Positions 34,756 through 61,820 of a stretch of DNA of 64,000 bases are shown here, piece after piece. The translations under genes were made by a program, and so were the position numbers. Below the pieces are notes generated by a model that made no database searches, was not told the DNA's origin, and saw only the letters and a program-made list of their open reading frames with translations. Every line of letters starts with the position of its first letter. Within the stretch, counting starts at the first letter, position 1. Origin of the DNA: Clostridiales bacterium (lineage in GTDB: Bacteria; Bacillota; Clostridia; Lachnospirales; Lachnospiraceae); NCBI GenBank assembly GCA_021201535.1, contig JAJQEU010000109.1:1998-65997 (forward strand), given 5' to 3'.

Positions 34756-34781
34756 AAATCCCCGGCTTAAGCCGGGGATTT
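34756..34781. repeat. Perfect 26-bp palindrome (CCCCGGCT family, copy 1)
   Basis: AAATCCCCGGCTTAAGCCGGGGATTT. Confidence 0.8.
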
Positions 34782-34783
34782 GT

Positions 34784-34888
34784 AGCAAGCATGTGAATAA
34801 CATTCTCAAGAAGACACATATCATAGCCGCGCTTCTTCATGAGCTTATAGTCCTTTTTGAAAGCAGTCTGATATTTAATCGTCCGTAT
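34784..34888 (-). pseudogene. YafQ-family toxin remnant (start ATG to ATA, truncated after ~35 codons)
   Basis: Manual translation (I)RTIKYQTAFKKDYKLMKKRGYDMCLLENVIHMLA overlapping the upstream stop; similarity ends at the palindrome. Confidence 0.75.
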
Positions 34889-36029
34889 CTAAATCCTCCA
34901 TTAACTCATACACAGATGAAAAACCACGGCTTAACCCTACGCCGTTTCTGGCGTCTTCAATGGCTTTCACCGTCTCAGCATTCGGCAGAGGATTTTTTGC
35001 TTTTTCTTTGCCCTTTTCATGCCATTCATTCAAAACAGCTTCCACTTGTGCTATTAACTGCTCTTTGTTCGGGATATAGGAAACATATCTGGAAGCAAAG
35101 ATTGTATTTGACAGACCACCGAGAGCATATTCAGCAGCTATGCTATCTTTGTCTGTACAAAGGATAATCCCGATTGGCGGGTTATCATGTTCATCGTTTA
35201 CTTCTGCGGTGTAATAATTCAGATACATATTGAGTTGTCCAACTGCTTCCGGCGTAAGTTTGGCTGTTTTCAGTTCAAACAGCACATATGCCCGGAGAAT
35301 TTTGTTGTAGAAAACCATATCCACATAATAATGTACATTGTTAAGCGTTATGCGCTGCTGCGTACCCACAAACATAAAGCCACGCCCTAATTCTAAGAGG
35401 AATTTCTCTATTTGCGCCACAAGTGCTTTCTCAAGATTGCTTTCAAGCATAGGCTTATTCTCCGGCACACCCAGAAATTCAAATACATAAGGGTCTTTAA
35501 TCATGTCCAGAGGTGTAGCCATTTCAATTCCTTTTTTTGCAAGAGCAAGTACCGTTTCTCTATTTGTTTTTCCCTCTGACAGTAATAGCCGTTCATAGAG
35601 CGATGTGGAAATCTGGCGTTTCAGTTCCCGTATTGACCATCCAGAGTTAACAGCTTCCTTTTCATAGAAACTGCGTTTATCCACGTCGGAAATAGATAAA
35701 AGTTCGCAATAATGCGACCAACTCAATTTGCCAGACACTGTCTGGCAAATTGGATAAGCAAGATAAAACGCCCTCATATTCTGTAAATTGGAGCGTGAAA
35801 ACCCTTTCCCAAACTCCTGCGTCAAATCTTTCGAAAGCTGTTTTAAAGTTTGTCTCCCGTAACCTGCCCGTTCCCTGTTTTCCTGTTCATACTCTACAAT
35901 AATTCTGCCCACATTCCAGTAGGTAGAAAGAAGTTCGGTATTTACCTGTACCGCCACGTTCTGACGTGCACTTATCAGTAATTCCCTGATTTCGTTTATC
36001 ATGGAATCATTATATGTTAAGTCGTTCAT
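34875..36029 (-). CDS. YhcG/DUF1016 PD-(D/E)XK nuclease-domain protein with a fused DinJ/RelB-like C-terminal tail
   Basis: YWNVGR.IV, GKGFS.SNL..MR.FY, LSWSHY, KDPYVFEFL, FLLELGRGF, DMVFYN..L..YV.FELK, GQLNMY and PPIGIILC; extra 37-aa tail PNAETVKAIEDARNG...ELMEDL. Confidence 0.88.
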   Translation of the reverse strand: MNDLTYNDSMINEIRELLISARQNVAVQVNTELLSTYWNVGRIIVEYEQENRERAGYGRQTLKQLSKDLTQEFGKGFSRSNLQNMRAFYLAYPICQTVSGKLSWSHYCELLSISDVDKRSFYEKEAVNSGWSIRELKRQISTSLYERLLLSEGKTNRETVLALAKKGIEMATPLDMIKDPYVFEFLGVPENKPMLESNLEKALVAQIEKFLLELGRGFMFVGTQQRITLNNVHYYVDMVFYNKILRAYVLFELKTAKLTPEAVGQLNMYLNYYTAEVNDEHDNPPIGIILCTDKDSIAAEYALGGLSNTIFASRYVSYIPNKEQLIAQVEAVLNEWHEKGKEKAKNPLPNAETVKAIEDARNGVGLSRGFSSVYELMEDLDTDD

Positions 36030-36170
36030 TTTTACCGCCCTCTTTAATGTGTGATGCAATCAAAGTATAACACAAAAGCTACTCTATTTCCATAGTATCA
36101 AATTTATAAAATTCTTATATGAAAGAAGCTCCGGCAAACTTTTTATAATAGTCGCCCCTTATAAAAATGG

Positions 36171-36821
36171 TCAGACTATTTCGCCATTTTCCATTTCATA
36201 TACCTGATCGCAGAGAATGCTTATATCCTCCGCGCTGTGGCTGGCAATCAGAAGCAGCTTATCCTGCGTTCTCAGTGACAGAAGCAACTTACGAACCTCC
36301 GCCACACCATGTTTATCCAAACCATTCATCGGTTCGTCCAAGACTAATACCGACGGCTGTTCCATAATCGCCTGTGCCAGGCCAAGACGCTGCCTCATCT
36401 CCAGACTGTATTTTTTCACCGGCATTTTCGATTCCGGATCCAATCCGGTCTGTCTCATTGCCTTTTTCATATCTTCTTTTGTTATTTTGTTTTTGATGCC
36501 TGCCAGCACAACCAGATTCTTTAACCCACTATAATAGGGAATGAATCCGGGTGTTTCAATAATAATGCCTGCATCCGGCAGATAATCTACATCCTTACCT
36601 ATGATTTTTCCGTCCGCTTTCACATATCCTTCCGTGGGTTTTACAAAACCGCAGATGCAGCGCATAAGCATAGTTTTCCCGCATCCGTTATTTCCCACCA
36701 GCCCATAAATGTGCCCGCTTTCCAATCGCAGGGAAATATTATTTAAAATTTCTTTTTTACTCAGTGTCAGAGAGACTCTGTTTACTTCGATCACTTTATT
36801 CACCCCGTTTATTTCAAACAT
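36171..36821 (-). CDS. ABC transporter ATP-binding subunit
   Basis: Walker A GNNGCGKT, Walker B LVLDEP and H-loop IASH; signature reads YSLEMRQR. Confidence 0.92.
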   Translation of the reverse strand: MFEINGVNKVIEVNRVSLTLSKKEILNNISLRLESGHIYGLVGNNGCGKTMLMRCICGFVKPTEGYVKADGKIIGKDVDYLPDAGIIIETPGFIPYYSGLKNLVVLAGIKNKITKEDMKKAMRQTGLDPESKMPVKKYSLEMRQRLGLAQAIMEQPSVLVLDEPMNGLDKHGVAEVRKLLLSLRTQDKLLLIASHSAEDISILCDQVYEMENGEIV

Positions 36822-36945
36822 CTCCGCAGCTTTTCCATCCTCACGTTTCTTTTTTGCGTCTTAAAAACATTCGACCTGTGCGGTTGGACGCTCTGTGGCG
36901 CGTCCAACCCTGCTCACACATTCGCAAAACCCGCGTTTCTTCCGG

Positions 36946-37797
36946 CTACAGCACCCGATATCTCCGCGATACAATCAGGCTGACCGCTATGAGCCCGATA
37001 CTTCCCGCCGCCAGATAAACATAAGACCCCCACATCGGGAAAACCATCTCGCTCAGATACTCTTCATAATGCACCCATGGGACGATGTGTGTGATGGGAA
37101 AAAGCCACATTCCCTTCATCTTCACCTCCATAAAGACCACTCCCATAATAAGCAAAAACGCATTGATCAGCACTCCCGCATACTTTTGGTTGCAAAGCGA
37201 AGCCGCTAAAAGTATCATAGCAATTACAATAAAATGAAGCAGCAGCAGAAAAAATGAATGAACCAGCGCTTCTGGAAGCGACATCTGCTGATACAAATTG
37301 CCCGGCACAAGTTCAACAACATAATCTCCTGTCCGATCCGGATAAGCGGATGTAAAATGTGTCATCGCATCTGAAAATCCCATCTGCCATGTTCCGCATC
37401 CCATCATCATGAGGCAGGTGATCCAAAAGAGAACCCCAACCACAAAAAGACTCGCCTTCACTGCAAAAAGCACCTGTCCCGCAATCCAGATTTTTTTCTC
37501 ACAGCGTATCTGATAAAACAGATGTATTCCGCTTTTTTGCGGAAAATCAGCCAGAAGAACTAAAAACAAAAGCGGCAGTACCAACAGCACCACCCCTGAA
37601 TTGCTCAGTGCAATAAATCCCTCCAAAACCGACACCGGTTCTCCCATAAGATCGGCGCATTCTGCCAGCGGGGCAACAACCTGTACATGAATAAACACTG
37701 CCATTACTGCCAGTATAATCAATCTGCTGTTCCTTAACCACTGCCGGAATTCCGCAGATGATATGCGCCATATCATGCAGCCCGCTGTATTACCCAT
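36946..37797 (-). CDS. Multi-TM ABC-2-type permease-like protein
   Basis: About six hydrophobic segments; directly upstream of the ATPase; start overlaps the previous stop. Confidence 0.7.
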   Translation of the reverse strand: MGNTAGCMIWRISSAEFRQWLRNSRLIILAVMAVFIHVQVVAPLAECADLMGEPVSVLEGFIALSNSGVVLLVLPLLFLVLLADFPQKSGIHLFYQIRCEKKIWIAGQVLFAVKASLFVVGVLFWITCLMMMGCGTWQMGFSDAMTHFTSAYPDRTGDYVVELVPGNLYQQMSLPEALVHSFFLLLLHFIVIAMILLAASLCNQKYAGVLINAFLLIMGVVFMEVKMKGMWLFPITHIVPWVHYEEYLSEMVFPMWGSYVYLAAGSIGLIAVSLIVSRRYRVL

Positions 37798-38534
37798 TAC
37801 ACCCTCTCCTCTGCACTTCCATATAAAACGCCACAAACAGGCCGGCATATACGGTCAGCATAAAAAACATCGACACATACCAGTACCTGTTCCCGGAAAT
37901 ATTCACAACAGAATCCATAAAAAAGGCTGAAATCAGCTCTGTCCGGTCTCCCGCACCTGAAAAGCTTTCATTCAGTAATCTCTGTAATACCTGTATGTAA
38001 ATATAATTAAGAAGAAACGGCAGGCAGAGCAGCATATATTTATCCCGGATTAAAATGGCCGCGCCCAAACCGAACACACACGCAAACATGCCGTACAGAA
38101 AAATCCCCAGAAGCCTCTTCACCACAAATATCGTTATTCCGGCGCCGCCCCCGTAAAGCTGAAGCCAGATCGTCTGTTCATCCTGGGGAAATGCAGAAAA
38201 CCCCGGAAATACCGACATCATCACAAGTCCAAAAATGCCATATCCCGCCGTAAAACCAATCCCCCCTGCCAGAGCGCCCCCTGTCAGTTTAGATATACTG
38301 TATCTGAAATTCCCCATACGGATCAGCTGAAATCCTGTCTCCCCGCTCTGCCGCTCCGAAGATAACGTTACCAGATATCCAAAACTCAAAAGCAAAGGAA
38401 GCAGCAGCGGAAGCCAACCGCTTAACACCTGCATCCACATCACCAGATCGCTTTTCCCGATTTCCGCTGCCGCCTCCTTTTCCGTTTGCAGCATCAGCGC
38501 AAAAATCGTAATACTCTTTCCGGTATAATCATAA
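37790..38534 (-). pseudogene. ABC permease-like gene, 3' fragment (split by the IS)
   Basis: Hydrophobic ORF whose native frame resumes at ..DYTGKSITIF just outside the IS inverted repeat. Confidence 0.75.
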
Positions 38535-40398
38535 TATAGGCTCTCGGAATCTTGAGCCTCCCGGCCGAATTTCAGCGGCCGACTGAACATTGAAAAGTAA
38601 ATATTATCCAAAATGCAACGGTTATAGCGCAGTTTAGTAAAAAAGAGCGCAGAGTAGTAGACCATATTCAAAACATGGCTTATAATGGTATTGCTTATTC
38701 AGATAAGCGGCCTGCTAAAAGAGATCTCTGAGGCGTGAAGTCTTTGGCGGGTCCCAGGCATCAAGATGTTGGCACATCATGATGCAGAACAGGCGGCAGT
38801 ACCACATCTTAGTTGAACGGTATCTGCCGTCTTCTATTTTATAGTCTACTTTCTCACGTTTATTACAGCGTTCTGCGGAGGTTCTGGCATTATATTCCAT
38901 TTTCCATTCTTTGCTGCTGCGCGGCGGGTTATTGAATAACCTTGGGTTGTCTTTCATGGCAAGATGAACCGTCCTGCCGTATTTCGCATCCGAGCAGGGA
39001 TTTTCACAGGTACATGTAATTTTTCCACCTGCAAAGCTGATCTTCGGGCATTTGAATTTGGTCCTGCCTTTATCGACTTCCGTGCCGTCGCGTCGCATGG
39101 TATATCCTTCGCGGCACACGGGGACGCCATCATTGTTGATTGTGAAATCATCTTTATAAACTGGCGGCCGCCCGCCTTTTCCATTGAGGTCAATAAATGG
39201 CGTGATTCCCTGTTCACGGCAGTATGTATAAACAGGCATGGCATCATGCGCGGAGTCAAGAAGCAGCTTTTTGACGACTGCTTCGGGGAGAAACTGTTTC
39301 ATGGAGAACCAGTTATAAAGGAACCCATGGGAATCATGCCTGGAAGCGGGTCCCAGAAAAGGAAATACAGGAAGGTCATTCTCTGAATCCGAAGCGGTCA
39401 GCATATACAGGTCATAACCAAAGTAGTAGCAGTTCCGAAGGGAATCCCAGCCGATGTTGCAGTCAGGCTGGCTGTAGGTGCGGTTGCATTTACAGTTATG
39501 GATTCCTTTTTCGAGGCAGTCACAGGTACGTTTTTTTCGCTCTCTGGCGGCGGTACGGATGGGGGTCCCATCGCCTGCGAGGGAAAGAGAAAAAAGATTA
39601 ATCAGGCCATCGGCTGCAGAGCGTTTGAGAAAGAGAGTGCTGAAAATCTCGTAGAGCATCCGGCAGGGTTCCATATCATGGGGAGGATCCTGCTCAAAGC
39701 GCTCAAAGAGTTCTTTGACAGTTACTTTCTCAACAGGGGCAGCTTTTTCTCCATTTTTAGATGGCTTTTTGGGTTTTTCTTTCGGCGGATGGACAGAATC
39801 TGAAATATTATTTTTATCAGAGAGCCAGAGCCGCCTTTGAAAGTCGTAAAAGGTAGCGGTGCCCGGTGTATCGCCAACGAGAAAACCGGAAATGATGGCA
39901 TGAAGGTGGTTTTCCTTCAGGTCAGCAGCCCACTTGGTATAGGAGACAATACCGAATTCCACGGAAACAAGGATGGATCGAAGCATATCGGAAGGGAGCC
40001 TTGGCTCAGGGCCGAAGACAGAATACCGGTCCCGCATGATGGAATCGACCTCGGAGAGGTCAAGATTCCAGAACTTTTCCATAATCTCCCAGGTGGAAGA
40101 AGAAAGGGAATTTGGGGCATCAGGATAATATTTACGAAGCTGTGCCAGGACACGATCCTGGTAGGCGGCATGGCCGCCGGAATTAACAGGTTTCATATGT
40201 GCACCTCCAATCAAGCGTGAAATATCTTCTTGATTGAAGGGCGCGCCTCGCAGCCTCTGGCGAGGCAAAGACAGCAAGGCGCGCCGCACATTTTACCCCA
40301 TTTGTCAATAGTTTTTTTTGAAAAAAGTGGGGGGAATTAAAAAAAAGGGGTCTTAAAAAGCCATGTTTTATGCAGGGTTGAGATTCCGAGAGTCTATA
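38535..40398 (-). mobile_element. Insertion sequence (~1.86 kb), DDE type, family uncertain
   Basis: Terminal inverted repeats TATAG[G/A]CTCTCGGAATCT (17/18 match) flanked by TAA (38532-34 and 40399-401). An alternative boundary 38539-40394 with a TA duplication also fits. Confidence 0.88.
38715..40196 (-). CDS. IS transposase (DDE, IS4/IS5/IS1182-like)
   Basis: LAGDGTP, YYFGY, LLLDSAHDA and YNARTSAERCNKREK; Cys-rich insert; GGAGG RBS before MKPVN. Confidence 0.85.
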   Translation of the reverse strand: MKPVNSGGHAAYQDRVLAQLRKYYPDAPNSLSSSTWEIMEKFWNLDLSEVDSIMRDRYSVFGPEPRLPSDMLRSILVSVEFGIVSYTKWAADLKENHLHAIISGFLVGDTPGTATFYDFQRRLWLSDKNNISDSVHPPKEKPKKPSKNGEKAAPVEKVTVKELFERFEQDPPHDMEPCRMLYEIFSTLFLKRSAADGLINLFSLSLAGDGTPIRTAARERKKRTCDCLEKGIHNCKCNRTYSQPDCNIGWDSLRNCYYFGYDLYMLTASDSENDLPVFPFLGPASRHDSHGFLYNWFSMKQFLPEAVVKKLLLDSAHDAMPVYTYCREQGITPFIDLNGKGGRPPVYKDDFTINNDGVPVCREGYTMRRDGTEVDKGRTKFKCPKISFAGGKITCTCENPCSDAKYGRTVHLAMKDNPRLFNNPPRSSKEWKMEYNARTSAERCNKREKVDYKIEDGRYRSTKMWYCRLFCIMMCQHLDAWDPPKTSRLRDLF

Positions 40399-40505
40399 TA
40401 ATCCGCAATGGAGGATAAACATAATGTCAACACACCCGCGACCATTAACAGGACAAAGGGGAAATGCAGACACTTCATTAATTCCGTTTTTATACAGCGC
40501 AGCAT
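40399..40505 (-). pseudogene. ABC permease-like gene, 5' fragment (split by the IS)
   Basis: GGGGAG RBS, then MLRCIKTELMKCLHFPFVLLMVAGVLTLCLSSIAD running into the IS end. Confidence 0.75.
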
Positions 40506-40519
40506 GTTTCTCTCCCCTT

Positions 40520-41836
40520 TTATTCTTCTGTGTCCAGTCTATATGTGTAATAATAAATATCTCCTGTAAAAACATCCACATATAACCGAATCCCTTCATT
40601 CTTTATCTGATTTACTCCGCGGATTTCCCAACACGGAAAAATGATTTTTTCCTCCGGATCTTCAGAATCAAGGAAATTTACCGCATAATACACTAAGCCT
40701 GCTGTCTCTGCTTTTATATTCAACTGCGAAGCCAGCTTCTCGTCCAGAAAAACCGCCAAATCTTCAAGTCCGATGATCTCTTTTTCAGAATAAAGCGTTG
40801 TCATCTTCTCTGCTTCATTATATCCGGAAAACGCCGTCACCCCGGAATCATCCATAACATACGCATTTTTATTGTCACAAGCGGGAAAAACATCCCCGTT
40901 GATCTGATAGGACCCTGTCTGCATATATGCCAATGGAATTCCATCATATATCCGGCGCATGATGTATTCATATGCATAAATATCTTTTAATTTAAATACG
41001 CATACCTCTGCGATTTCATTTTCCACACCCTCCTCCGGCGGAAATGGAGTTCCCTGACGAAAATACTCCAAAACCATCTCAGCCCCTTCCTCCACTGTCA
41101 TTTCACCGCTGGCCAGCTCATATTTTTCGTTTGCCAGTTCAGAGTAACTGCCATACGCAACAACATCTTCTTCAGAGTAGGAATACCCCAGCGCATCCAT
41201 TGCCGCAGAAGAAGTACTCCCCAGATATTCTGTTATTTTTCCGTCGCTCATGGAATAAATTCCACCGGAAGTAATCTGGATATGACACAGGTTATTATCG
41301 ATAAATGCGCCTTCTCCCGAACTTAATTCGGACATATGATTATAAAAAGTATAATAGTTTCCGCCCGCATCTACCCCCAGCTCGGTCGAAACTACCTTTA
41401 CCTCAGTCTCCATATCTATTTCGCTCTTTTTCCCGATACTCTCCAGCCAGTTTTCTATCGTATCCCAGCTCTCTTCCACCGTAATTCCGTGATCTTCTGC
41501 AACAAGAAGCTTCATGTCTTCTGATTCCGGAAAACTATCAAATTCGCAATTTTCAAAATTGATCCTGGAGTATTCCGAATGTCTCACAGTCTCTATCTCT
41601 GTGTCATATTGCTCCCTGCATACAGAAATCGGAGTCAAATCCCTCAAAATTTTTTCCTGATAATCCTCAACAGAAAACACGGTATCCGGACTGTCAGCAT
41701 CCTCAATAGAATCTGTGGAGACTTCTGAAACAGTTTCCCCCTCCTGATCTGATGTCGCGCAGGCCGCGAATCCCATAAGGCATAATAATGCCGCTCCGAC
41801 CATAAACCAACGAACTTTGCGATAATTTCTATGCAT
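40520..41836 (-). CDS. Acidic lipoprotein, unknown function
   Basis: Basic N-terminus, hydrophobic core and lipobox FAAC; first gene of the permease/ABC operon. Confidence 0.75.
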   Translation of the reverse strand: MHRNYRKVRWFMVGAALLCLMGFAACATSDQEGETVSEVSTDSIEDADSPDTVFSVEDYQEKILRDLTPISVCREQYDTEIETVRHSEYSRINFENCEFDSFPESEDMKLLVAEDHGITVEESWDTIENWLESIGKKSEIDMETEVKVVSTELGVDAGGNYYTFYNHMSELSSGEGAFIDNNLCHIQITSGGIYSMSDGKITEYLGSTSSAAMDALGYSYSEEDVVAYGSYSELANEKYELASGEMTVEEGAEMVLEYFRQGTPFPPEEGVENEIAEVCVFKLKDIYAYEYIMRRIYDGIPLAYMQTGSYQINGDVFPACDNKNAYVMDDSGVTAFSGYNEAEKMTTLYSEKEIIGLEDLAVFLDEKLASQLNIKAETAGLVYYAVNFLDSEDPEEKIIFPCWEIRGVNQIKNEGIRLYVDVFTGDIYYYTYRLDTEE

Positions 41837-41868
41837 GGCGCTCCCCTCCTCTACAGACAAAATATCAC

Positions 41869-41894
41869 ATCCGTTTGTATTCTTTTTGTACTTT
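41869..41894. promoter_or_regulatory. Putative response-regulator box upstream of the lipoprotein operon
   Basis: 26-bp sequence identical to 44431-44456; TACAAA-N5-TACAAA direct repeat on the minus strand. Confidence 0.7.
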
Positions 41895-41943
41895 CAGATT
41901 GTTCAATATTCCGTATTCACCCCTGTGCATACAAAACAACTGC

Positions 41944-41970
41944 AACCCTGCCGCAAAGACAGGGTTGCTC
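41944..41970 (-). terminator. Hairpin after the histidine kinase gene
   Basis: GCAACCCTG-loop-CAGGGTTGC. Confidence 0.6.
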
Positions 41971-43584: not shown

Positions 43585-43722
43585 GCCATTCCCTCCGTTT
43601 TTGCATTTGCCGAATTCTTTCACAAATATCTCCTCCCTGTATGTCACAGTAACCCGTACAAGCCTCTCAAAATCCGCAGAGCAGTCTTTACTGCTTATCC
43701 GGACAAATCTATACCCGGCGCG

Positions 43723-44397
43723 TCATGGCCGCGTTTCCATCATATAACCGGATTTGATGATCGTCCGGATACATTTCCCGTATTTTCCCAGCGCTTTCCG
43801 CAAATTCTTGACATGTGTATCAACCGCCCGGTCGCTTCCCTCATAATCGTAACCCCACAGCTTTAACAGAATCTGCTCCCGCGTCAGCACCCGCCCCGCA
43901 TTGTTCATAAAATAGCGAAGCAATTCGAAATCCAATGCCTGAAGGACAACATACTCCCCGCCGCACATCACCTGCCTCCGCTCCGGCTGCAAACGGATGC
44001 CTGATACTTCCAGCCAGCCGCTGCCCCGCTGTCCCCGCTCCAGAACGGCGCGGCACTTCGCGAGAAGCACCGCCAGAGAAAACGGCTTCAATATGTAATC
44101 GTCCGCCCCCAGCTGATAGCCGTAAAGCTGATCCGTCTCCTGCACACGGGCTGTCAAAAATAAAATCGGCACATTCTCTTTTTCCCTGATTTTGCGACAG
44201 AGCGTAAATCCGTCCATCTGCGGCATCATTACATCCAGAAGCACCAGATGATAGTCCCGTATCTGAATCATCTCCCAGGCTTCCTGTCCGTCCGCCGCCG
44301 TATCCACCTCAAAACCGTTCGCGGAAAGATAATCATGGATCAGTTCGCGCATATTCGCATTGTCTTCCGCCAGCAGAATTCTTTTCATGGGTTCCAT
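43723..44397 (-). CDS. OmpR/PhoB family response regulator
   Basis: LLAEDN, LLDVMMP.MDG, GADDYILKPF, W...Y....RAVDTHVKNLRK and GY. Confidence 0.95.
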   Translation of the reverse strand: MEPMKRILLAEDNANMRELIHDYLSANGFEVDTAADGQEAWEMIQIRDYHLVLLDVMMPQMDGFTLCRKIREKENVPILFLTARVQETDQLYGYQLGADDYILKPFSLAVLLAKCRAVLERGQRGSGWLEVSGIRLQPERRQVMCGGEYVVLQALDFELLRYFMNNAGRVLTREQILLKLWGYDYEGSDRAVDTHVKNLRKALGKYGKCIRTIIKSGYMMETRP

Positions 44398-44430
44398 CTC
44401 CCTCCCCTTTGATTACAGACAGTATAGCCG

Positions 44431-44456
44431 ATCCGTTTGTATTCTTTTTGTACTTT
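44431..44456. promoter_or_regulatory. Putative autoregulatory response-regulator box
   Basis: Identical to 41869-41894; lies just upstream of a TATACT -10 on the minus strand. Confidence 0.7.
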
Positions 44457-44505
44457 TTCTATACTTTCCAAATCCCGTTTGCAACTTTTACCCAAAAAAC
44501 ACAAT

Positions 44506-44525
44506 CCCCCGGCTTTAGCCGGGGG
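44506..44525. repeat. CCCCCGGCT palindrome, copy 2
   Basis: CCCCCGGCTTTAGCCGGGGG. Confidence 0.75.
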
Positions 44526-45496: not shown

Positions 45497-45511
45497 GAAG
45501 GAACTGCCGTC

Positions 45512-47373: not shown

Positions 47374-47388
47374 ATCCGCCCTCCGATC

Positions 47389-52379: not shown

Positions 52380-52438
52380 ACGAACACCTCTTACCAGCTG
52401 TTACAGCGCTCGGTTGCGCGATACCCTGATACATATGA

Positions 52439-54040: not shown

Positions 54041-54120
54041 CGCAGCCTCCTATTCCGAACCGGTGTGGTTATTCCCGCTCCGGCAACTGATTCGCAATCT
54101 CTGTCGCAGCCTCCAGTTCC

Positions 54121-56559
54121 TTAATCCCGCTCCGGCAGCGGCGGCATCGTATCAAACTTCTGTCTCAGATCCTCCGCTCCGAATTCAGTCTTTCCCGTTT
54201 TTTCATTTTCACGAAGCGCTCTCCACAGGCGTTCCGGCGTAATCGGAAGCTCCCGAAGCGTCAGGCCGGTCGCGTAGTTGATCGCGTTGCCGATCGCCGA
54301 ACCGACCGGTGCGGTACTTCCCTCGCCCGCCTCCTTCGCCCCAAGCGGTCCTTCCGGATCGTATTCGCTGCAGATAAAGGTCCTGATATTCGGCATATCC
54401 AGAGCCGTCGGGAAACGGTAATCACGAAAGCTCGGATTTAAGTGCCGACCCTCGCTGCTGTACTGGCACTCCTCATAACAGGTAAAACCGAAACCGAGCA
54501 GTACGGAACCTTCGATCTGCCCCTCCACCGCGCGGATATTCAGCGGCCTTCCGCAGTCATGCCCGAACGCGAAATCGTCAAGCGAAACCTGTCCGGTCTC
54601 CTTATCCACCGTAACCTTCGCCGCCGATGCGGAGAAAGAATACGCGGTCGCGTAGTTTCCTACATTTTTCACATAAATATCCTTGTCGCCCTCATGCGCG
54701 AACGAACCCACGCCCACGACGCAGCGTCCGAAGTTTTTCTCCTCATATCCGAACAGCGCCTCATTGTAAGAAATATTCTTTTCCGGGTCGCCCTTGATAA
54801 AGACGCGGTGGTCCTTCATGGTAATGTCGGAGGGTTTGCACCCCCACTCCTCTGCCCAGTGGGAAAGCAGCTTGAACTTTGCGTCTCCCACCGCCCGGTG
54901 GCAGGCGTTTCCGCCGAGGAAAGTCACACGGGAGCCGAAGGAACCCGCATCCCACGGCGTCGTCGTCGTGTCGGACTGCACACACTTAACCTCGTCCATC
55001 CGGAGCCCCAGCTCCTCCGCCACGATCATCGTCATCACCGTATCGCATCCCTGCCCGATGTCGTTGGCGCCGGTAAATACAACCGCGTATCCCTCACGGT
55101 TCAGCCTGACGATCGTGGAAGCCGAACAGTAATGGGGCGTTACCAGTACGGGGAACCCGGTGCCGGACATGAATCCGGAGCCCGACAATCCCACGCCCTC
55201 CCCGCTTCCGAGCGGATACCGCCACCTGTGTTCCCAGTCGATCGCATCAGCAACCGCCGTCAGGCACTCGTCAAATTTACAGGAGGTAAATTCCAGACCG
55301 GTAGGGCCGGTATAATACGGCGTAATCTCATTATCACGGCGCAGCTTCAGCGGATCGATGCCAAGGGAATTCGCCACCTCATCCATGTGTATCTCATGGG
55401 CGAAATGTACCTGACACGCCGAATAACCTCTCATGGCGCCGGAAGCGGGGTGGTTGGTGTATGGCCTCCGCGCCGTCATGTCGATGTTTTCCACCTTGTA
55501 GGGAAAGGTCGCGCAGATCAGCGAAAGGGTATTGGCCGCAATGCCGGATCCTCCGTAGGCTCCCCCGTCCAGGATATGCTTGCAGCGTTTTGCCAGAAGC
55601 TTTCCTTCCTTTGTGAAAGCGCTCTCAATCTCAAAGGAAATGGGATGTCTGGTTCTTGTACACATAAATACCTCATCCCGCTTTAAAATGCACTTGACCG
55701 GATGGCCGGTCATCTGTGCGAACTTGCACGGGCAGAGCTCATGGGCGAATGCGTCCAGCTTTCCGCCGAACCCGCCGCCGATCATCGGCTTGATCAGATG
55801 CACCTGGCTCTCCGGCACACCAAGCCCCCAGGCAATCCAGTAACGGCTGACATAAGCGCCCTGCGTCGTCGTCCAGATCGTATATTCCCCATTCTCGTAC
55901 TTTGCGATCGCCCCGTGCGGCTCAATCGCCGCGTGAACCATCTCCTGCGTCTTATAATAATGCTTATCCGTGTAATAGGCTTCCTCAAACACCCGGTCCG
56001 GCTCTCCCGCCTTCATGGTGGTAAAAATAGAGAGATTACCCGTCCCCGGATAATGGATCGCCGGAGCGTCCGGCTGCATGGAGTAAAACGGATCCAGCAC
56101 CGGTTCCAGCGGTTCGTATTCTACCTTTACCAGCGCCGCCGCCTCCGTGGCGGCCTCCTCCGTCGTGGCGCAGACCGCGGCGACCTCGTCGCCGGCCATA
56201 CGGACCTTTTTACGGCACAGCGGCTCCTTGTCCGCCAGCTCCTTGAAAGCCTCAGGGTTCCCCAGGTTGTGTCCCTCCGGGAAATCCTTTCCGGTAAGCG
56301 TCGCCTTTACCCCCGGCACCTTCAGCGCTTCCGTGAAATCAATGCTTTTGATGAGCGCATGGGCGTAGGGGCTGTGTACCAGCTTACAATACCATGTGCC
56401 GGGCAGATCCACGTCGTCCGTATAGACCGCGGAGCCGGTTACCTTTGCCTCCGCGTCGATCCTGATATACGCGTTTCCCCTGCCTGCCAGTTCATAATCC
56501 TCGGGATCCTTGTATACGCTCTCTACATCCGCGTAATATTCTTTCGCCATAACCGCCAT
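54121..56559 (-). CDS. Xanthine-oxidase-family molybdopterin-binding large subunit (HcrA/CoxL-like)
   Basis: AKVTG...Y.DD, HAAIEPH, TTTQ, GGGFGGK, GAMRG, DIGQG, SRVTF.GGNA, EGQIEG and GAKEAGE; TAATG coupling to the 2Fe-2S gene. Confidence 0.93.
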   Translation of the reverse strand: MAVMAKEYYADVESVYKDPEDYELAGRGNAYIRIDAEAKVTGSAVYTDDVDLPGTWYCKLVHSPYAHALIKSIDFTEALKVPGVKATLTGKDFPEGHNLGNPEAFKELADKEPLCRKKVRMAGDEVAAVCATTEEAATEAAALVKVEYEPLEPVLDPFYSMQPDAPAIHYPGTGNLSIFTTMKAGEPDRVFEEAYYTDKHYYKTQEMVHAAIEPHGAIAKYENGEYTIWTTTQGAYVSRYWIAWGLGVPESQVHLIKPMIGGGFGGKLDAFAHELCPCKFAQMTGHPVKCILKRDEVFMCTRTRHPISFEIESAFTKEGKLLAKRCKHILDGGAYGGSGIAANTLSLICATFPYKVENIDMTARRPYTNHPASGAMRGYSACQVHFAHEIHMDEVANSLGIDPLKLRRDNEITPYYTGPTGLEFTSCKFDECLTAVADAIDWEHRWRYPLGSGEGVGLSGSGFMSGTGFPVLVTPHYCSASTIVRLNREGYAVVFTGANDIGQGCDTVMTMIVAEELGLRMDEVKCVQSDTTTTPWDAGSFGSRVTFLGGNACHRAVGDAKFKLLSHWAEEWGCKPSDITMKDHRVFIKGDPEKNISYNEALFGYEEKNFGRCVVGVGSFAHEGDKDIYVKNVGNYATAYSFSASAAKVTVDKETGQVSLDDFAFGHDCGRPLNIRAVEGQIEGSVLLGFGFTCYEECQYSSEGRHLNPSFRDYRFPTALDMPNIRTFICSEYDPEGPLGAKEAGEGSTAPVGSAIGNAINYATGLTLRELPITPERLWRALRENEKTGKTEFGAEDLRQKFDTMPPLPERD

Positions 56560-57041
56560 TATGCACGCACCTCCCTCGCCAAAACCTTCGCCGCGGCGTC
56601 GATTGCCTCCACGATCTTCGCATAGCCTGTACATCTGCACAGGTTGCCCGCGATACCGTCCCTGATCTCCTGCTCCGTGGGATGCGGATTTTCATGCAGC
56701 AGAGATAACGCGGACATGATCATGCCCGGTGTACAGAAGCCGCACTGCAGCGCCCACTTATCCATAAATTCTTTCTGCACCGGATGCAGCACTCCGTCCT
56801 TTTTGACACCTTCGATCGTCACGACCTCATGGCCGTCCGCCTCCACGGCAAGCATCATGCAGGAATCAATCGCCGCCCCGTCCAGGAGAATGGTGCACGC
56901 GCCGCATTCTCCTTCCTCGCAGCCTCTTTTCGTACCTGTCAGATGCATCTGTTTCCGGAGGAAATCCACCATGGTAAGCCCGTCGGCGACCAGCTCCTCC
57001 ACATCCTCTCCATTAAGTTTAAAGCTAATGATATGTTTCAC
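56559..57041 (-). CDS. 2x[2Fe-2S] small subunit (CoxS/XdhC-type ferredoxin subunit)
   Basis: GCEEGECGACT, QCGFCTPG and GNLCRCTGY. Confidence 0.96.
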   Translation of the reverse strand: MKHIISFKLNGEDVEELVADGLTMVDFLRKQMHLTGTKRGCEEGECGACTILLDGAAIDSCMMLAVEADGHEVVTIEGVKKDGVLHPVQKEFMDKWALQCGFCTPGMIMSALSLLHENPHPTEQEIRDGIAGNLCRCTGYAKIVEAIDAAAKVLAREVRA

Positions 57042-57056
57042 GCTGATTCCTCCTTC

Positions 57057-57944
57057 CTACACTTTCCGCGTCGCGACCGCTTCTTTTATGGCACGCTTTG
57101 TATAGACGCGCACCATATCCGCCCGGTACTCCGCGGATGCCCGGACGTCGGAAATGGGCTTCGCCTCTCCCATGGCCAGCCGGCCGGCTTCCTCCAGCGT
57201 CTCCTCAGTGATCTCTCTGCCTTTTAAGAACTCCTCCGCCTGACAGGCGCGCAGGGGAGTGATCCCGACGCCTCCCATGGCGATTCTCACATCTGCAACC
57301 GTTTTTTTATCCATCCGGATCCACGCCGCCACTCCGATAATCGCCAGATCCATCGCCTTCCTCACAGAATGCTTAAAATAAGCGGATCCCTCACCGGACT
57401 TTAACGCCGATATCAGAATCTCCGTCACAATCTCCCCGCCGTTTTTATCCAGGCAGGTCTTTTTGACGCCCTTGAAAAATTCTCCGATCGGGATGATCCT
57501 GCCGCCTCCCGGACGGTAAGTGGAAACCTCCGCGTTCATCGCCAGTAAAATCGAAGCGGTATCCGCGGACGGCGATGCGTTGCAGATATTTCCCGCCATG
57601 GTTCCCTTGCGGCGGATCTGAGCGGAAGCCACATAATGCGCCGCCTGAGAAACCGCGGGCATCTTTTCCCTGACAAGGTCAGATGTCTGGATGGCGAACA
57701 GCTTTGTGTTCGCGCCGACCCTTAGCCCTCTCCCTTCTTCAAATTCCAGCGTATCCAGCCCCGGGATCCCCTTGATATCGACCACAGAATCCACATCCTT
57801 TAAGACACGCTCTTTCAGCAAGATGATCACGTCCGTCCCGCCGGACATAAGAATCGCGCGCGGACCAAGCTCTGTCATTTTCGCAGAGGCTTCCTCCAGA
57901 CTTCGGACCGCGTAATAATCAATTGCCGGTAAAGCCATACTCAT
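57057..57944 (-). CDS. FAD-binding medium subunit (CoxM-type)
   Basis: GGTDV, ASAQIRRKGTMAGNICNASPSAD and ISDVRASAEYR; no [4Fe-4S] Cys insert. Confidence 0.94.
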   Translation of the reverse strand: MSMALPAIDYYAVRSLEEASAKMTELGPRAILMSGGTDVIILLKERVLKDVDSVVDIKGIPGLDTLEFEEGRGLRVGANTKLFAIQTSDLVREKMPAVSQAAHYVASAQIRRKGTMAGNICNASPSADTASILLAMNAEVSTYRPGGGRIIPIGEFFKGVKKTCLDKNGGEIVTEILISALKSGEGSAYFKHSVRKAMDLAIIGVAAWIRMDKKTVADVRIAMGGVGITPLRACQAEEFLKGREITEETLEEAGRLAMGEAKPISDVRASAEYRADMVRVYTKRAIKEAVATRKV

Positions 57945-58094
57945 TTCCTTCCTTTCTTTGTTGCTTCTTTTGACAAAAGTTTATCAAAAAGAACCCGGGG
58001 AAGCCATGCGCATATGCGACAGGGGTTGCAAATGCGACTAACGCATTTTTATTTTCCCTGCAGCGTTCCCGATCTCATCCTTCTTTTCATCCTG

Positions 58095-58757
58095 TTATAT
58101 GCTTTCCGATCCGTCCGGAAGCGGCGCGGGACGAACGCCGACGCGTACCACCTGAAACCGCTCTCTGCCGTTCTCTTCCTGTCGCGACAGCGTCGTAACG
58201 CCTCCGCCGGGCTGCGGAATCGCCATCACATCTTTTGCGCTTTTCATTTCAATCTGTTCTGTCAGACATATGGCCGCGCGTATAACACCCGCATGCGCGA
58301 CGACGATCAGATCATCCTCCGGCGTCTGCCGGGAAAGCAGAGACAGTTCTTTCAGGAAGCGCTCTCCGGCCTCCCGAAAGGTTTCCGCGCCCGGCACCCG
58401 ATAATCGCCAATGTTCTCTCCTCTCTTTTCATATTCCCCGGGATACCGCTCCCTGATTTCACGAAACGTCAGACCGTCCCAGGCGCCCATGGACGCTTCC
58501 CGCAGATTCTCCCGCACCAGAATATCTGGTTTTCCATCGGAAAACAGCAGATCTGCGCTTTCCCTGCAGCGCAGCAGCGGACTGGTATAGACTTTTCCCC
58601 CGGTACAGATCCTTTGCTCTGCCATCTGTCCCGCAAACCAGTTTCCCAACAGTTCCATCTGCCGGATCCCGCGCGCGCTGAGCGGGAGATCCGTACAGCC
58701 GATGCAGCGTCCCTCCCGGCGCGCCGCCGTTTCCCCGTGTCTGATAAGATAGATCAT
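58095..58757 (-). CDS. Histidine phosphatase (PGAM/CobC-like)
   Basis: IRHGET, TSPL.RC, E...G.WDG, GAE and VVAHAGVIR. Confidence 0.9.
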   Translation of the reverse strand: MIYLIRHGETAARREGRCIGCTDLPLSARGIRQMELLGNWFAGQMAEQRICTGGKVYTSPLLRCRESADLLFSDGKPDILVRENLREASMGAWDGLTFREIRERYPGEYEKRGENIGDYRVPGAETFREAGERFLKELSLLSRQTPEDDLIVVAHAGVIRAAICLTEQIEMKSAKDVMAIPQPGGGVTTLSRQEENGRERFQVVRVGVRPAPLPDGSESI

Positions 58758-58760
58758 CCT

Positions 58761-59681
58761 TTACCCCTGCTTTATGAAAACCGCCGTCCCGTGAAGATCC
58801 ATAAGGGGAACGACAAACAAACCGTTTTCCTCACAGTAACGCCGCGCCGCCCTGCGGACGCCCGGAAACTGCAGGCTGTTATAATCATGGAGGACAATGC
58901 ATCCGCCCGCCGCCAGCCTGGGATAGAAAAACCGCAGCCCCTGATAAACCGGCTCGCCAAGATCAGGATCCAGACTGACCAGCGCAAGTTCTCCCATCTC
59001 ATCCGACAGTCCCCCCGAAACACTATCCGGGAAATATCCTGCAATCAGGCGCGCCTTCTCAGGATAAGGAAGCCTTTTTTCGACTGTCTCCACACTCGTA
59101 TCCGAGAAATCGCACAGACGCGCAGAGGCCTTTCTTCCATCGGGGACAATCCTCCTCTCGATCTCGAGATCCCGCGCATCAAAACCACAGAACGTGTCAA
59201 ACAGAAAAAGCCGGCGTTCGGGAAACAGCCGGTTCAGCTCGACCGCCGTATCTCCCCGATAGACGCCAAGCTCCGCAATGCTGCCGGAGACTCCTCTCTC
59301 TCGGATTTCCCGCGCCAGCAAACGGATCACGGCAAGCCTGGCGTCCTGGCTGCCGCGGTAAAACAGAGCCTCCCTTATGTCCCCCACAAAACCGGCCTGT
59401 AAAATCTGATTTTTGATCCCGGTATTCGCCTGTCTGTTTAAAGTCCCGATACAGATCACATCCGGCCGCCGATCCAAAGCACACAACAGCGGCAGGACCG
59501 GAACGCCATCGATCTCGCTTCCCTGCAATGTTTCATCGTTATCAATATAACAGATCAGCTGGTGATCCGCAGGCAGCCAGGCCGAAATCATCCGCCCAGC
59601 CTGCCCGGCGCCGAAAATTGCCGTTCGAACCGCGTCATTCGTCCGGTCGTTGATTCTGTCACACTTTTTAATTGTCGTCAT
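58761..59681 (-). CDS. TylF/MycF/NovP-family O-methyltransferase with an N-terminal Rossmann-like domain
   Basis: IFGAGQAG N-domain; AELGVYRG, LFDTFCGF, GYFPDS, LVSLDPDL and LHDY; ATGA overlap with xdhC. Confidence 0.85.
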   Translation of the reverse strand: MTTIKKCDRINDRTNDAVRTAIFGAGQAGRMISAWLPADHQLICYIDNDETLQGSEIDGVPVLPLLCALDRRPDVICIGTLNRQANTGIKNQILQAGFVGDIREALFYRGSQDARLAVIRLLAREIRERGVSGSIAELGVYRGDTAVELNRLFPERRLFLFDTFCGFDARDLEIERRIVPDGRKASARLCDFSDTSVETVEKRLPYPEKARLIAGYFPDSVSGGLSDEMGELALVSLDPDLGEPVYQGLRFFYPRLAAGGCIVLHDYNSLQFPGVRRAARRYCEENGLFVVPLMDLHGTAVFIKQG

Positions 59682-60718
59682 ATTGCCTCCAGGAGTACAT
59701 CCAGAACACCGCCGCAGACCATGCCCTCGTCCTCCGCTGCCTCCGCGGTCATATCTACATGAATCAGCTCCGGTGTGAAGGAATCCCTGATCATAAGCTG
59801 CCGGCCACGGTTTGCCACCTCGGCTTCCACACAGCCGCCGCCGATCGTTCCGATCGTCCTTCCATCCGGCAGAATCAGCATCTTGGTTCCGGTCTCCCGA
59901 GGTGCGGAACCCCTGCGCCTGACAATCGTCGCCAGAACCTCTCTGGATGCGCCGCACCCCGGAATCTCCGGAGGCTCCAGAATGCCTTTTAATATTTCCT
60001 TTGAGTATCCGCAGTGATTCTTTTTCTTATTCTTGACCTCCACAATCTGAGCCATGACCGAGATCGCGATTTCTTCCGGGGTCTCCGCCCCGATATCCAG
60101 GCCGATCGGAGAATAGACCTGATCCAGCACGCTTTTATCTACTCCCTCCGCAACAAGAGATTCCTTCACAAGAGCGACCCTCCGCCGGCTTCCGATCATA
60201 CCGATATAACCGTGCGGCTTTGCCGCGATCGCCCGCAGACATTCCCTGTCATACCGATGCCCTCTGGTCACGATCACAAAATAGGTGTCCGCGTCTCCGC
60301 TCACCTGCCGGAGGCTGTTTTCAAAAGAATCAACAAGAATTTCATCAGTGCCCTGCCGTCTCGCGTTGTTTGCGTACGTCGGCCGATCCTCCAGTACGGT
60401 AACATGGCAGCCCAGCATCCGACCCATGGAAATGATCGGCATGGACACATGCCCGCCGCCGCAAATCACAATTTTTTTCTCGTTTCCGAGTATCTCACTG
60501 TAAATACGATTCCCCGCCAGATCGGCCAGACCGCAGATATCAATCCCTGAAATTGCTTTTTCGTAACTGGAAAAAAAGCCCCTGTCCTCTGTTTCCCACA
60601 CGAGTTTTCCATTTGAAAACAGCGCTTTTTTTCCGATTTGATCACCCTCGATCACTGTAAAGACCTGATTCCTGTAATTTGGGTTGATCCTGCTGATTTT
60701 TTCATATAATTCGATCAT
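59678..60718 (-). CDS. XdhC/CoxI family Moco chaperone (Rossmann domain before the CoxI domain)
   Basis: GGGHVS, IVTRGH..D, YIGMIGSRR, PIGLDIGAETPEEIAIS, GSAPR..G.KM, GTIGGGC.E and CGG. Confidence 0.92.
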   Translation of the reverse strand: MIELYEKISRINPNYRNQVFTVIEGDQIGKKALFSNGKLVWETEDRGFFSSYEKAISGIDICGLADLAGNRIYSEILGNEKKIVICGGGHVSMPIISMGRMLGCHVTVLEDRPTYANNARRQGTDEILVDSFENSLRQVSGDADTYFVIVTRGHRYDRECLRAIAAKPHGYIGMIGSRRRVALVKESLVAEGVDKSVLDQVYSPIGLDIGAETPEEIAISVMAQIVEVKNKKKNHCGYSKEILKGILEPPEIPGCGASREVLATIVRRRGSAPRETGTKMLILPDGRTIGTIGGGCVEAEVANRGRQLMIRDSFTPELIHVDMTAEAAEDEGMVCGGVLDVLLEAI

Positions 60719-60766
60719 ATAAAGCCCCTCCATTCTGATCTGATTCATATGATATTGCTATTGCTT

Positions 60767-61711
60767 CTACATAATATTCTCCCGCCGCCAGTCAGCGTCC
60801 GGAAAGATATCGTCATACTTCTTTTTCGCAAACTCTTCTATCTGGCCCACGTATTCCTCATACAACGCCAGCAGCCGTCTGCCCCGTTCGGACACTGACG
60901 CCGTGCCTCCGTTTCGTCCGCCCGGCTTTCGCTCAATAATGCGATAGCCCAGTTCATCCTCCGCGAGCTTAATGATATGCCATCCCTTGCTGTAGGAAAT
61001 ACCCATTTTTTCACACGCATCCCGGACATTTCCCAATCGATCTACCAGACGCAGCAGCGTGGCCGTTCCCTGACCGAAAAAATGCTGTTTACCGGCCAGA
61101 TGCACCCGCACCTCCGCCCGCATCAGACGCTGATCGTGAAGACGTACCAGTCTCTCAAAATCCGTCTGCGTATCTGCGTCAATCATGGCGCCTTCATCCG
61201 TTACCGGAAGCAGATACGGCACGATATCCATGGACAAAAAAGCTCCTTTCAGCCCTCCTTCACCCTCATAACGCAGAATGTCCGGCAGCAGCCCGGCGTC
61301 GATCAGAACCGGATGCCCCCACTTTTCCCGGCTGACGGGTATAATCAGCGGTTCTTCCCGCGAAAGCTCTTCATGCACCGTATGTTCCGTAAACAAAGCG
61401 ACATCCGCCGGGCAGAAAAAGACGCGGTCACACCGTCCTTTAAGAAAATCAAAACCGATTTTTGCCGAGTCAAGCATCTGCGTCGTCTCGTAATTGCGAT
61501 TCTCCAGGAAAGTAACTCCCAGATTGTTCAGGCTTTTCCTTAACTCCTCCGAGCGGTAACCGGTAACCACAACGATGTCCCTGACCCCGCATTTTCTGAA
61601 ATTTACAATGACCCTTTCCGTCAGCATCATGTCCCCGATCTTCATCATCTGTTTAAACTGCTTCATTCGGGTGGACATGCCCGCCGCAGCAATTACCGCA
61701 CCTGTTCTCAC
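60767..61711 (-). CDS. MocA/MobA-like nucleotidyltransferase fused to a ModE-type winged HTH
   Basis: IAAAGMSTRM, D...F, GHPVLI and DADT..D; C-terminal A...MGISYSKGW...ER..GG..GG...S..G. Confidence 0.85.
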   Translation of the reverse strand: MRTGAVIAAAGMSTRMKQFKQMMKIGDMMLTERVIVNFRKCGVRDIVVVTGYRSEELRKSLNNLGVTFLENRNYETTQMLDSAKIGFDFLKGRCDRVFFCPADVALFTEHTVHEELSREEPLIIPVSREKWGHPVLIDAGLLPDILRYEGEGGLKGAFLSMDIVPYLLPVTDEGAMIDADTQTDFERLVRLHDQRLMRAEVRVHLAGKQHFFGQGTATLLRLVDRLGNVRDACEKMGISYSKGWHIIKLAEDELGYRIIERKPGGRNGGTASVSERGRRLLALYEEYVGQIEEFAKKKYDDIFPDADWRRENIM

Positions 61712-61752
61712 ACTGACACCGCCTGTTTTTTCTTTTAGTTTATTTTAAAAAA

Positions 61753-61791
61753 AATAATCGGTCATGTAGCCTATACTACAAACCGATTATT
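61753..61791 (-). terminator. Terminator after aspS
   Basis: AATAATCGGT...ACCGATTATT stem with inner TGTAG/CTACA and a T-run on the minus strand. Confidence 0.7.
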
Positions 61792-61800
61792 ATTTACAAG

Positions 61801-61820
61801 CCCCCGGCTGAAGCCGGGGG
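61801..61820. repeat. CCCCCGGCT palindrome, copy 3
   Basis: CCCCCGGCTGAAGCCGGGGG, 15 nt after the aspS stop. Confidence 0.75.

Follow-up and report, generated by a model that had tools for sequence, protein, structure and literature searches.

Three palindromic hairpins in the aspS–ptsI interval

We analyzed a 64,000-nucleotide stretch of Clostridiales bacterium DNA (the window), which lies on contig C84 of a 2.77-Mb genome assembly in 128 contigs (G000). Three copies of one short palindrome, labeled hairpin copies HP1, HP2, and HP3, punctuate the variable interval between the conserved hisS–aspS operon and the PTS–ptsI operon (PTS, phosphotransferase system). Genes were assigned by Pfam scans covering the ORFs from 29.8 to 64 kb. 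In window coordinates, the interval and its flanks contain the following features.

Upstream part of the ptsI operon, plus strand: DeoR regulator, PTS EIIABC, and HPr (Pfam)
33076–34689, plus strand: ptsI (PTS enzyme I), conserved core flank
34756–34781, no strand assigned: HP1, AAAT-CCCCGGCTTAAGCCGGGG-ATTT, perfect 26-nt palindrome, 67 nt past the ptsI stop
34778–34879, minus strand: YafQ-like toxin remnant, 34 N-terminal codons, IKYQTAFKKDYKLMKKRGYDMCLLENVIHMLATN
34875–36059, minus strand: YhcG/DUF1016 PD-(D/E)XK nuclease gene (Pfam)
36171–44397, minus strand: ATP-binding cassette (ABC) ATPase, four unannotated membrane-type ORFs, histidine kinase (HK), and response regulator (RR) (Pfam)
41971–43647, minus strand: HK (Pfam)
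43723–44397, minus strand: OmpR-type RR (Pfam)
44506–44525, minus strand: HP2, CCCCCGGCTAAAGCCGGGGG, then ATTGTGTTTTTTGGG on the minus strand
44526–44625, minus strand: AAA_14/DUF4143 ATPase relic (promoter region and 7 codons, CTGATA, HP2)
44634–61795, mostly minus strand: molybdenum (Mo)-hydroxylase module, 17.2 kb, between the DUF4143 relic and HP3
Start of the Mo module, plus strand: two Crp/Fnr genes (Pfam)
Within the Mo module, minus strand: trigger-like, AroD-like, MoxR, BspA-LRR, and VWA genes, Mo/FeS/FAD subunits, TylF-like methyltransferase, XdhC, and MobA
61753–61791, minus strand: AT-rich hairpin followed by eight U, part of the Mo module, ΔG −20 kcal/mol, also present in the related species G009
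61801–61820, minus strand: HP3, CCCCCGGCTTCAGCCGGGGG, 16 nt past the aspS stop, U-tract absent
61836–63620, minus strand: aspS, preceded by the 3′ end of hisS, conserved core flank

A pattern search of the window located CCCCGGCTnnAGCCGGGG at 34759–34778, 44506–44525, and 61801–61820. HP2 and HP3 match the strict 20-mer. HP1 (TCCCCGGCTTAAGCCGGGGA at 34759–34778) matches it with two mismatches, its outer pair being T:A rather than C:G, and extends to the perfect 26-nt palindrome AAATCCCCGGCTTAAGCCGGGGATTT at 34756–34781. Three palindromes at these positions, with none in the core part of the window, had been proposed in an earlier reading of this DNA (the original prediction), and both the pattern search and a genome-wide count of an 18-mer core bear the proposal out. 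The gene map agrees with the further proposal that the palindromes separate a nuclease/ABC/two-component module (34782–44505, between HP1 and HP2) from a Mo-enzyme module (44634–61795). HP1 does coincide, as proposed, with the truncation point of yafQ: the 34 remaining codons end inside the outer arm of the palindrome, where translation and coordinates place the loss of likeness to YafQ. At HP2, the DUF4143 relic proper spans 44532–44625, with its seven codons (ATGTTGGAAAGAAGCATTTAT) at 44532–44552. Next to HP3, the minus-strand train of the Mo module closes with XdhC and MobA (60767–61711).

The palindrome is rare and confined to one locus

The 18-mer core, CCCCGGCTNNAGCCGGGG, occurs three times in the 2.77-Mb assembly, each time inside the window; three palindromes within 27 kb thus compare with none in the remaining 2.70 Mb. 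By this count, which the original prediction had proposed as a check, the motif is rare and not randomly placed. Perfect GC-rich 8-bp hairpins of any sequence number only 116 in the whole genome, and none of 100 dinucleotide-preserving shuffles of the window yielded a match to the palindrome. The half-site CCCCGGCT is present at chance frequency (91 occurrences in the genome versus 84.5 expected). A search for half-palindrome relics elsewhere in G000 returned chance-level matches only, among them a look-alike on contig C34 that lies in coding DNA (E = 0.07). No Rfam family matched at the three hairpins.

We then followed the motif through 31 species genomes of the genus, with closeness judged by aspS identity. 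It is present only in G000 and its four closest species (G041, G016, G009, and G018) and is missing from 26 of the 31 genomes. Neither the 16 other families of the order that were searched nor 400 further genera of Lachnospiraceae yielded it. In G041, a single contig holds four copies in a span of 12 kb, and one of these has a loop-closing mismatch. The two copies of G016 are separated by 1.7 kb and the two of G009 by 5 kb; G018 has a single copy, with one mismatch. All copies in these relatives lie between or directly beside aspS and ptsI, in one orientation relative to aspS. A chance origin of the palindrome is ruled out by the shuffles, the lack of any other copy in the genome, and its absence from the 400 genera.

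In an alignment of 12 copies from the five species the stem is invariant apart from one compensatory change of the outer pair (C:G to T:A), and other variable bases are limited to two central positions. With stems this nearly invariant and a single compensatory change, covariation provides little evidence either way. In the aspS sense the consensus reads GAT[A/G]-CCCCCGGCT-NN-AGCCGGGGG-[A/C]TTG, and the 5′ GATN is common to three nonorthologous positions. Judged by this alignment, the copies are a small repeat family related by descent and confined to one locus. Orthologs of HP1 with the same TTAA loop are present in G041 and G009, and G016 retains only the ptsI-proximal half. HP2 has orthologs upstream of the RR gene in G009 and G041 and downstream of a gene ("gene X," described below) in G016, and HP3 has orthologs after aspS in G041, G016, and G018 (the last with one mismatch). 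One more distant species has, after aspS, a related terminator of different sequence, CCCGGC-TGCAT-GCCGGG with A/T tracts; this makes it probable that the aspS copy goes back to an ordinary terminator.

Wider searches added little. An all-species scan returned at least 120 loci with the motif in many phyla, about the chance expectation for 16 fixed bases in 596 Gb, and the motif loci listed from it bore no relation to the window beyond weak coding matches. We discarded the idea of a generic abundant motif; the scan itself, with matches at about chance level, was uninformative. A phage origin was likewise rejected: 67 viral contigs carry the 18-mer, but their flanks are unrelated and lack the extended consensus. 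Contigs encoding the exact HPr protein were 99.9 to 100% identical to the window with the same arrangement, essentially the same strain. A look-up of the exact RR protein and a metagenome scan for HP1 with its flank each found nothing.

Several other repeats were seen in the course of these counts. The true dispersed repeat of G000 is a different sequence with about 50 copies; it overlaps the 3′ part of a Clostridiales-1 RNA, the only Rfam match found (window 1736–1898, 122.9 bits), together with adjoining DNA (window 1860–1960), and many of its copies lie at contig ends. G018 has extra copies of this repeat inserted between HK and RR and also beside the Crp genes. A second clustered palindrome family, GGCGGAACT-N-AGTTCCGCC, is found on C32 at 2352, 3323, and 6934 and on C72 at 2051; the C32 contig with its three copies within 7 kb has little convincing coding sequence. 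Finally, a hairpin CGCGCGAA-AACAC-TTCGCGCG lies within a longer repeat 20 to 250 nt from the ends of C14, C36, C118, and C126, which is probably the edge of a multicopy element or operon that breaks the assembly.

Rearrangement endpoints recur at the hairpins

Breakpoints were read from cross-species alignments in the aspS sense; the relatives are draft assemblies, which limits the adjacencies that can be read, for instance beyond the Mo module in G009 and G018. Across these alignments, rearrangement endpoints recur at hairpin edges or within a few bases of them (up to about 9 nt), and once at a hairpin center. Homology between G000 and G041 stops at 61801, the outer base of HP3, and restarts at 34780, beside HP1. 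HP3 is the last sequence on the aspS side that is shared with the relatives. Each of the aspS-proximal copies (G000, G041, G016, and G018) is followed by different DNA within 0 to 9 nt. Between-species comparison had been named in the original prediction as a check on the hairpins as borders, and the breakpoints do coincide with them.

Single insertions and deletions can be placed more exactly. Relative to G041, G016 has a 1693-bp insert that starts at the first base past the aspS hairpin and contains one gene encoding an AAA+PDDEXK_3 protein (gene X), a second hairpin copy, and 27 nt, after which the G041 sequence resumes with zero loss. In G009, the aspS hairpin and the 5′ half of gene X are deleted, leaving a 264-aa stump followed by an HP2-type copy. 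In G041, the YhcG gene (94.7% nucleotide identity to that of the window) makes up a unit by itself, with a hairpin copy on either side. The yafQ gene of G000 breaks off at codon 34 and that of G041 at about codon 6, and both remnants end at HP1; these are two independent truncations with a common endpoint. G016 gives the break closest to a palindrome center: ptsI is followed by CCCCGGCTTA and then unrelated DNA, with the break within 1 nt of the center. Beyond this surviving half-palindrome (AAATCCCCGGCTTA; locus L233 on contig C125), G016 has a different terminator hairpin and a convergent aldo/keto-reductase-like gene, and its aspS and ptsI loci are on different contigs.

In G000, the DUF4143 gene is deleted from codon 8 up to 6 nt before HP2, leaving CTGATA; G009 and G041 have the intact AAA_14/DUF4143 gene, in each case adjoining a hairpin copy. 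The G018 sequence upstream of RR is homologous only as far as the point where HP2 would begin. G041 retains a 56-nt relic of the ABC gene upstream of its DUF4143 gene; this relic and the DUF4143–hairpin–RR junction that G041 shares with G000 point to a segmental duplication that later decayed. That junction in G041 lies 10 to 14 nt outside the stem, so that its origin by a clean crossover between two hairpins, which we considered, is hypothetical.

At its right end, the Mo module stops 5 to 9 nt short of HP3 in G000. G009 carries this module on another contig (C32:10316–26621) at 93% identity, compared with 85 to 88% for aspS and ptsI, and G018 carries part of it (contig C6) beside RR–HK, with a different junction and no hairpin. 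A divergent MATE-type gene precedes the module in G009 and G018 and is missing in G000. These identities and positions suggest that the Mo module moves, or is exchanged, as a unit. The RR–HK pair is kept at 87 to 92% in G041, G009, and G018; the ABC part of its module differs.

Further observations concern the contents of the modules. The YhcG ORF of G000 continues into a DinJ/RelB-like tail (…ETVKAIEDARNGVGLSRGFSSVYELMEDLDTDD), with the YafQ-like stump directly after it (34875–35000, minus strand), and the same tail is present on YhcG in G041 (…ADD*); a toxin–antitoxin pair has apparently fused and decayed beside HP1. An identical 26-bp box occurs downstream of HK (41869–41894) and upstream of the RR operon (44431–44456) as an exact repeat. 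TACAAA-type repeats upstream of RR are conserved in both G009 and G041, whereas G016 has a truncated copy past its second hairpin. In the Mo module, the second Crp gene and the trigger-factor-like gene converge, with 33 nt between their stops, and a repeat of about 26 nt (46221–46247) sits in this gap; further copies are found on C35, C80, and C40 of G000 and at many contig ends in G016, G018, and G004.

The hairpins have the shape of terminators

Folded as RNA, the cores have ΔG values of −16.3 to −17.7 kcal/mol (HP1, −16.3 kcal/mol). These stable GC-rich stem-loops lie just past transcription units: HP1 follows ptsI by 67 nt, HP3 follows aspS by 16 nt, and the HP2-type copies of the relatives lie 3 to 36 nt past the stop codons of DUF4143 or gene X. 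Every copy closes a transcription unit, or what is left of one, on its 3′ side. HP1 sits between the convergent ptsI (plus strand) and YhcG/truncated yafQ (minus strand) and has four to five T in the first 8 nt on either strand, a composition that suggests a bidirectional terminator. On the minus strand of HP2, ATTGTGTTTTTT directly after the stem supplies a U-tract. HP2 is the top terminator-like site in the 34 to 46 kb region and has the clearest intrinsic-terminator shape of the three copies; it is now orphaned, upstream of the RR promoter. At the other end, the only canonical terminator shape downstream of aspS in G000 is the AT-rich hairpin at 61753–61791.

Proposed explanation: copied terminator palindromes as borders and break points

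The explanation we favor, with moderate confidence, is that the hairpins are terminator-type palindromes restricted to this lineage and locus, copied from the resident aspS/ptsI terminator, which insulate the modules and are preferred break and join points. The resident palindrome would have been copied when DNA inserted beside it, and the resulting array would later have been reshuffled by duplication and deletion. At the RNA level, each module may rely on its hairpin to end or insulate transcription or to shield 3′ ends, with HP2 standing between upstream transcription and the RR promoter boxes. At the DNA level, a stalled fork or a structure-specific cut at the base or tip of a hairpin could start a break, and repair would then be guided by homology on the conserved flank and end in an illegitimate join on the opposite flank, making the palindromes preferred points of breakage and joining. 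A dedicated transposase or recombinase is neither needed nor seen. Palindromes are known hotspots of breakage and rearrangement cleaved by SbcCD (PMC4245961, PMC3315005). An active break/join role for the DNA palindrome is moderately likely here, and only moderately because the fragile palindromes that have been studied are far longer.

Several points weigh against this explanation. The DUF4143 junctions lie 6 to 14 nt outside the stem and not within it. G016 and G041 do not differ by a clean crossover from hairpin to hairpin, since the second copy is followed by 27 additional nt. The aspS-proximal copies have no U-tract in any of the four species and are not canonical intrinsic terminators. 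A palindrome of 20 to 26 bp is expected to extrude rarely, so that any active role of the DNA structure is hypothetical. Selection alone would in part explain why breakpoints fall beside the outermost conserved element of a core operon, and no single simple event accounts for the origin of the extra copies. The fragile palindromes examined experimentally, moreover, are hundreds of bp long (PMC4245961, PMC3315005).

Alternative explanations

A purely passive reading and a trans-acting recombinase are both serious rivals. On the passive reading, which is possible but rather doubtful, the hairpins are ordinary terminators kept by selection and mark the last constrained bases, and extra copies arose by segmental duplication or homology-facilitated illegitimate recombination, with no role of the palindrome in breakage or joining. 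HP1 and HP3 do flank conserved core operons, several junctions lie 6 to 23 nt off the stem, the ABC-gene relic in G041 points to segmental duplication and decay, and short palindromes are usually stable. Selection on terminators accounts poorly, however, for two independent yafQ truncations that share their right endpoint at HP1, for the G016 insert, which starts directly at the hairpin edge and cost the recipient no DNA, and for a break at a palindrome center. Pure selection should also have kept the U-tract on the aspS copies, and none of the four has one. Finally, three to four identical stems at one locus with none in 400 genera call for a copying process tied to the site.

Site-specific recombination, which we consider unlikely, would make the palindrome (7–9-bp arms and a short spacer) an att/res-like core acted on by a recombinase encoded elsewhere, with modules accreted and a copy of the site left at each border. 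Such a locus could be likened, with the same reserve, to decayed integrative elements, to pdif modules, or to the res-I-like palindromes around Photorhabdus toxin–antitoxin cassettes, which also supply a published precedent (PMC13617665). The arrangement is the expected one, site–module–site–module–site in one orientation. It recurs as hairpin–YhcG–hairpin in G041 and as hairpin–gene X–hairpin in G016, where G041 has a single hairpin at the same place. The restriction of variation to two central bases and the break at a center are also in its favor. Yet no tyrosine or serine recombinase is encoded on the contig (no PF00589 or PF00239 match on C84) or near the locus in the relatives, the nearest being about 63 kb away in G009. 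G000 does have a conserved Xer-like recombinase of about 370 aa, on contig C95. The distribution of the motif, in 0 of 400 other genera and missing from 26 of the 31 genomes of the genus, leaves no visible reservoir of elements with a matching site, and the DNA around the motif in the 67 viral contigs is unrelated. On exchange within the site the junctions are mixed: loop bases go with the right-hand flank (TA with ptsI, AA with RR) and not half with each flank, and the DUF4143 junctions fall 6 to 14 nt outside the stem, but the one break at a center, in G016, lies inside it. Differing central dinucleotides would, in addition, block exchange by a serine recombinase.

A bolder reading is improbable. 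The locus would be a recombinase-free cassette array in which the resident terminator palindrome extrudes as a hairpin or cruciform whose base is cut, perhaps by the YhcG, AAA+PDDEXK_3, and DUF4143 proteins encoded beside the hairpins, foreign DNA is joined there, and fill-in of the staggered ends duplicates the palindrome. If it were true, every insertion would add one more landing site together with one more terminator, and the outcome would be an integron-like array that needs no integrase.

Even less likely is that the genes for PD-(D/E)XK-type proteins (YhcG, gene X, and DUF4143) are selfish cassettes, whose products would cut the base of the extruded palindrome so that the genes are copied in at repair and fill-in duplicates the palindrome. 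All single-gene units beside hairpins encode such proteins, and a staggered cut at a cruciform base would give a palindrome–insert–palindrome arrangement. YhcG homologs are patchy (143 of 400 genera) and reach 81% amino-acid identity in other genera, as for a mobile gene. However, 0 of 29 YhcG loci from other genera are flanked by a duplicated palindrome, and on this ground we rejected a general nuclease-plus-palindrome cassette. The two-component/ABC and Mo modules share the hairpin borders but have no such gene there. The 29 YhcG/DUF1016 loci (L241–L269), with 65 to 81% amino-acid identity in unrelated genera and several with in-frame stops, suggest frequent horizontal transfer and decay of this gene.

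The original prediction had regarded the palindromes as subterminal hairpins of the IS200/IS605 insertion sequences or of repetitive extragenic palindromic (REP) elements whose Y1 transposase was lost, and despite a short GC-rich hairpin and one weak Y1_Tnp homolog in the genome, this is now highly improbable: there are three copies in one locus with no dispersal, all identical and in one orientation, with no pairs of left and right ends and no evident conserved cleavage tetranucleotide. The expected linkage to tnpA(Y1)/tnpB failed as well, since the single PF01797 match (57.6 bits) is unlinked, on C97, and neither G009 nor G018, which carry the hairpin, has one. Pfam found no transposase among the ORFs of 29.8 to 64 kb, and there was no sign of a mobile unit carrying the palindrome. 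The same prediction had offered "transposase-less hairpin elements or recombination hotspots" as alternatives; the hotspot, or border, half is upheld by the species breakpoints, and the hairpin element half is unlikely because the motif is absent from the 400 other genera.

Significance of the locus

Most small accessory modules of gut Firmicutes lie in "hotspots" without a mobile-element gene, and how they arrive is poorly understood. The aspS–ptsI interval offers a clean natural series, with five species, one repeated 20- to 26-nt palindrome, and about ten independent endpoints of insertion, deletion, or translocation at or beside it. Should the palindrome actively serve as a site of breakage and joining, or be a recombinase site, it would explain how an island grows beside terminators with its modules transcriptionally insulated. 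If it is only a passive terminator, it still gives exact borders for the Mo-enzyme, two-component/ABC, and nuclease modules, and the Mo module would even then be seen moving as a unit between loci.

Comparison with known systems

With intrinsic and bidirectional terminators the hairpins share a GC-rich 8- to 9-bp stem, a 4-nt loop, a folding energy of −16 to −18 kcal/mol, and a position just past stop codons. Terminators are normally idiosyncratic, whereas here one stem is reused one to four times in one locus of five species and nowhere else, and the aspS-proximal copies lack the U-tract.

Integron attC sites are imperfect palindromes of 50 to 150 nt with R″, L″, L′, and R′ boxes and extrahelical bases. 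Arrays of such sites, including clusters of attC sites lacking an integron integrase (CALINs), resemble the locus in that cassettes are parted by a repeated palindrome in one orientation, their content varies among relatives, and an integrase is not nearby. The palindromes here, perfect, only 20 to 26 nt long, and free of bulges, are not attC sites, and C84 also lacks the PF00589 match that a complete integron would show. Some of the modules, moreover, are multioperon blocks that bring their own promoters and have genes running in both directions.

The pdif modules of Acinetobacter carry toxin–antitoxin or resistance genes bounded by short XerC/D sites, without a recombinase of their own; the sites have an 11-6-11 architecture, alternate in orientation, and are found on plasmids. 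The likeness lies in accessory modules bounded by short repeated sites and lacking their own recombinase. The present sites differ in having 8- to 9-bp arms and a 2- to 4-nt center and in being chromosomal and in a single orientation.

REP sequences, with their mosaic arrays (BIMEs) and associated tyrosine transposases (RAYTs), and the ends of IS200/IS605 elements and of the related palindrome-associated transposable elements (PATEs) are likewise short, GC-rich, extragenic hairpins. REP sequences occur as tens to hundreds of dispersed copies, compared with three copies within 27 kb and a half-site at chance frequency here. As for element ends, the 12 copies are one perfect palindrome, their flanks have only GATN/NTTG tendencies, and there is no left/right asymmetry.

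Palindrome-induced fragility involving SbcCD shares with the locus endpoints at the base or center of perfect palindromes; the studied palindromes extend over hundreds of bp (PMC4245961, PMC3315005), and those described here are 20 to 26 bp.

The closest published parallel that we found, judged by analogy, is in Photorhabdus, where a 24- to 28-nt palindrome is present once at an empty site and on both sides of a toxin–antitoxin cassette in a sister genome, and is read by its authors as a res-like (res-I-like) site (Mol Biol Evol 2026, PMC13617665). There too the locus has no mobility gene and carries toxin–antitoxin remnants, an arrangement comparable to G041 versus G016 and to hairpin–YhcG–hairpin in G041. 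The Photorhabdus palindrome resembles a Tn3 resolution site and its cassette has plasmid and Tn3 relatives (PMC13617665), whereas here we found no likeness to a known recombinase site or mobile element, and up to four copies bound modules of 1.3 to 17 kb. The hairpins belong to a known kind, palindromic border elements or terminators that recur at the hotspot of an island, and what sets them apart is the locus-restricted reuse of one stem.

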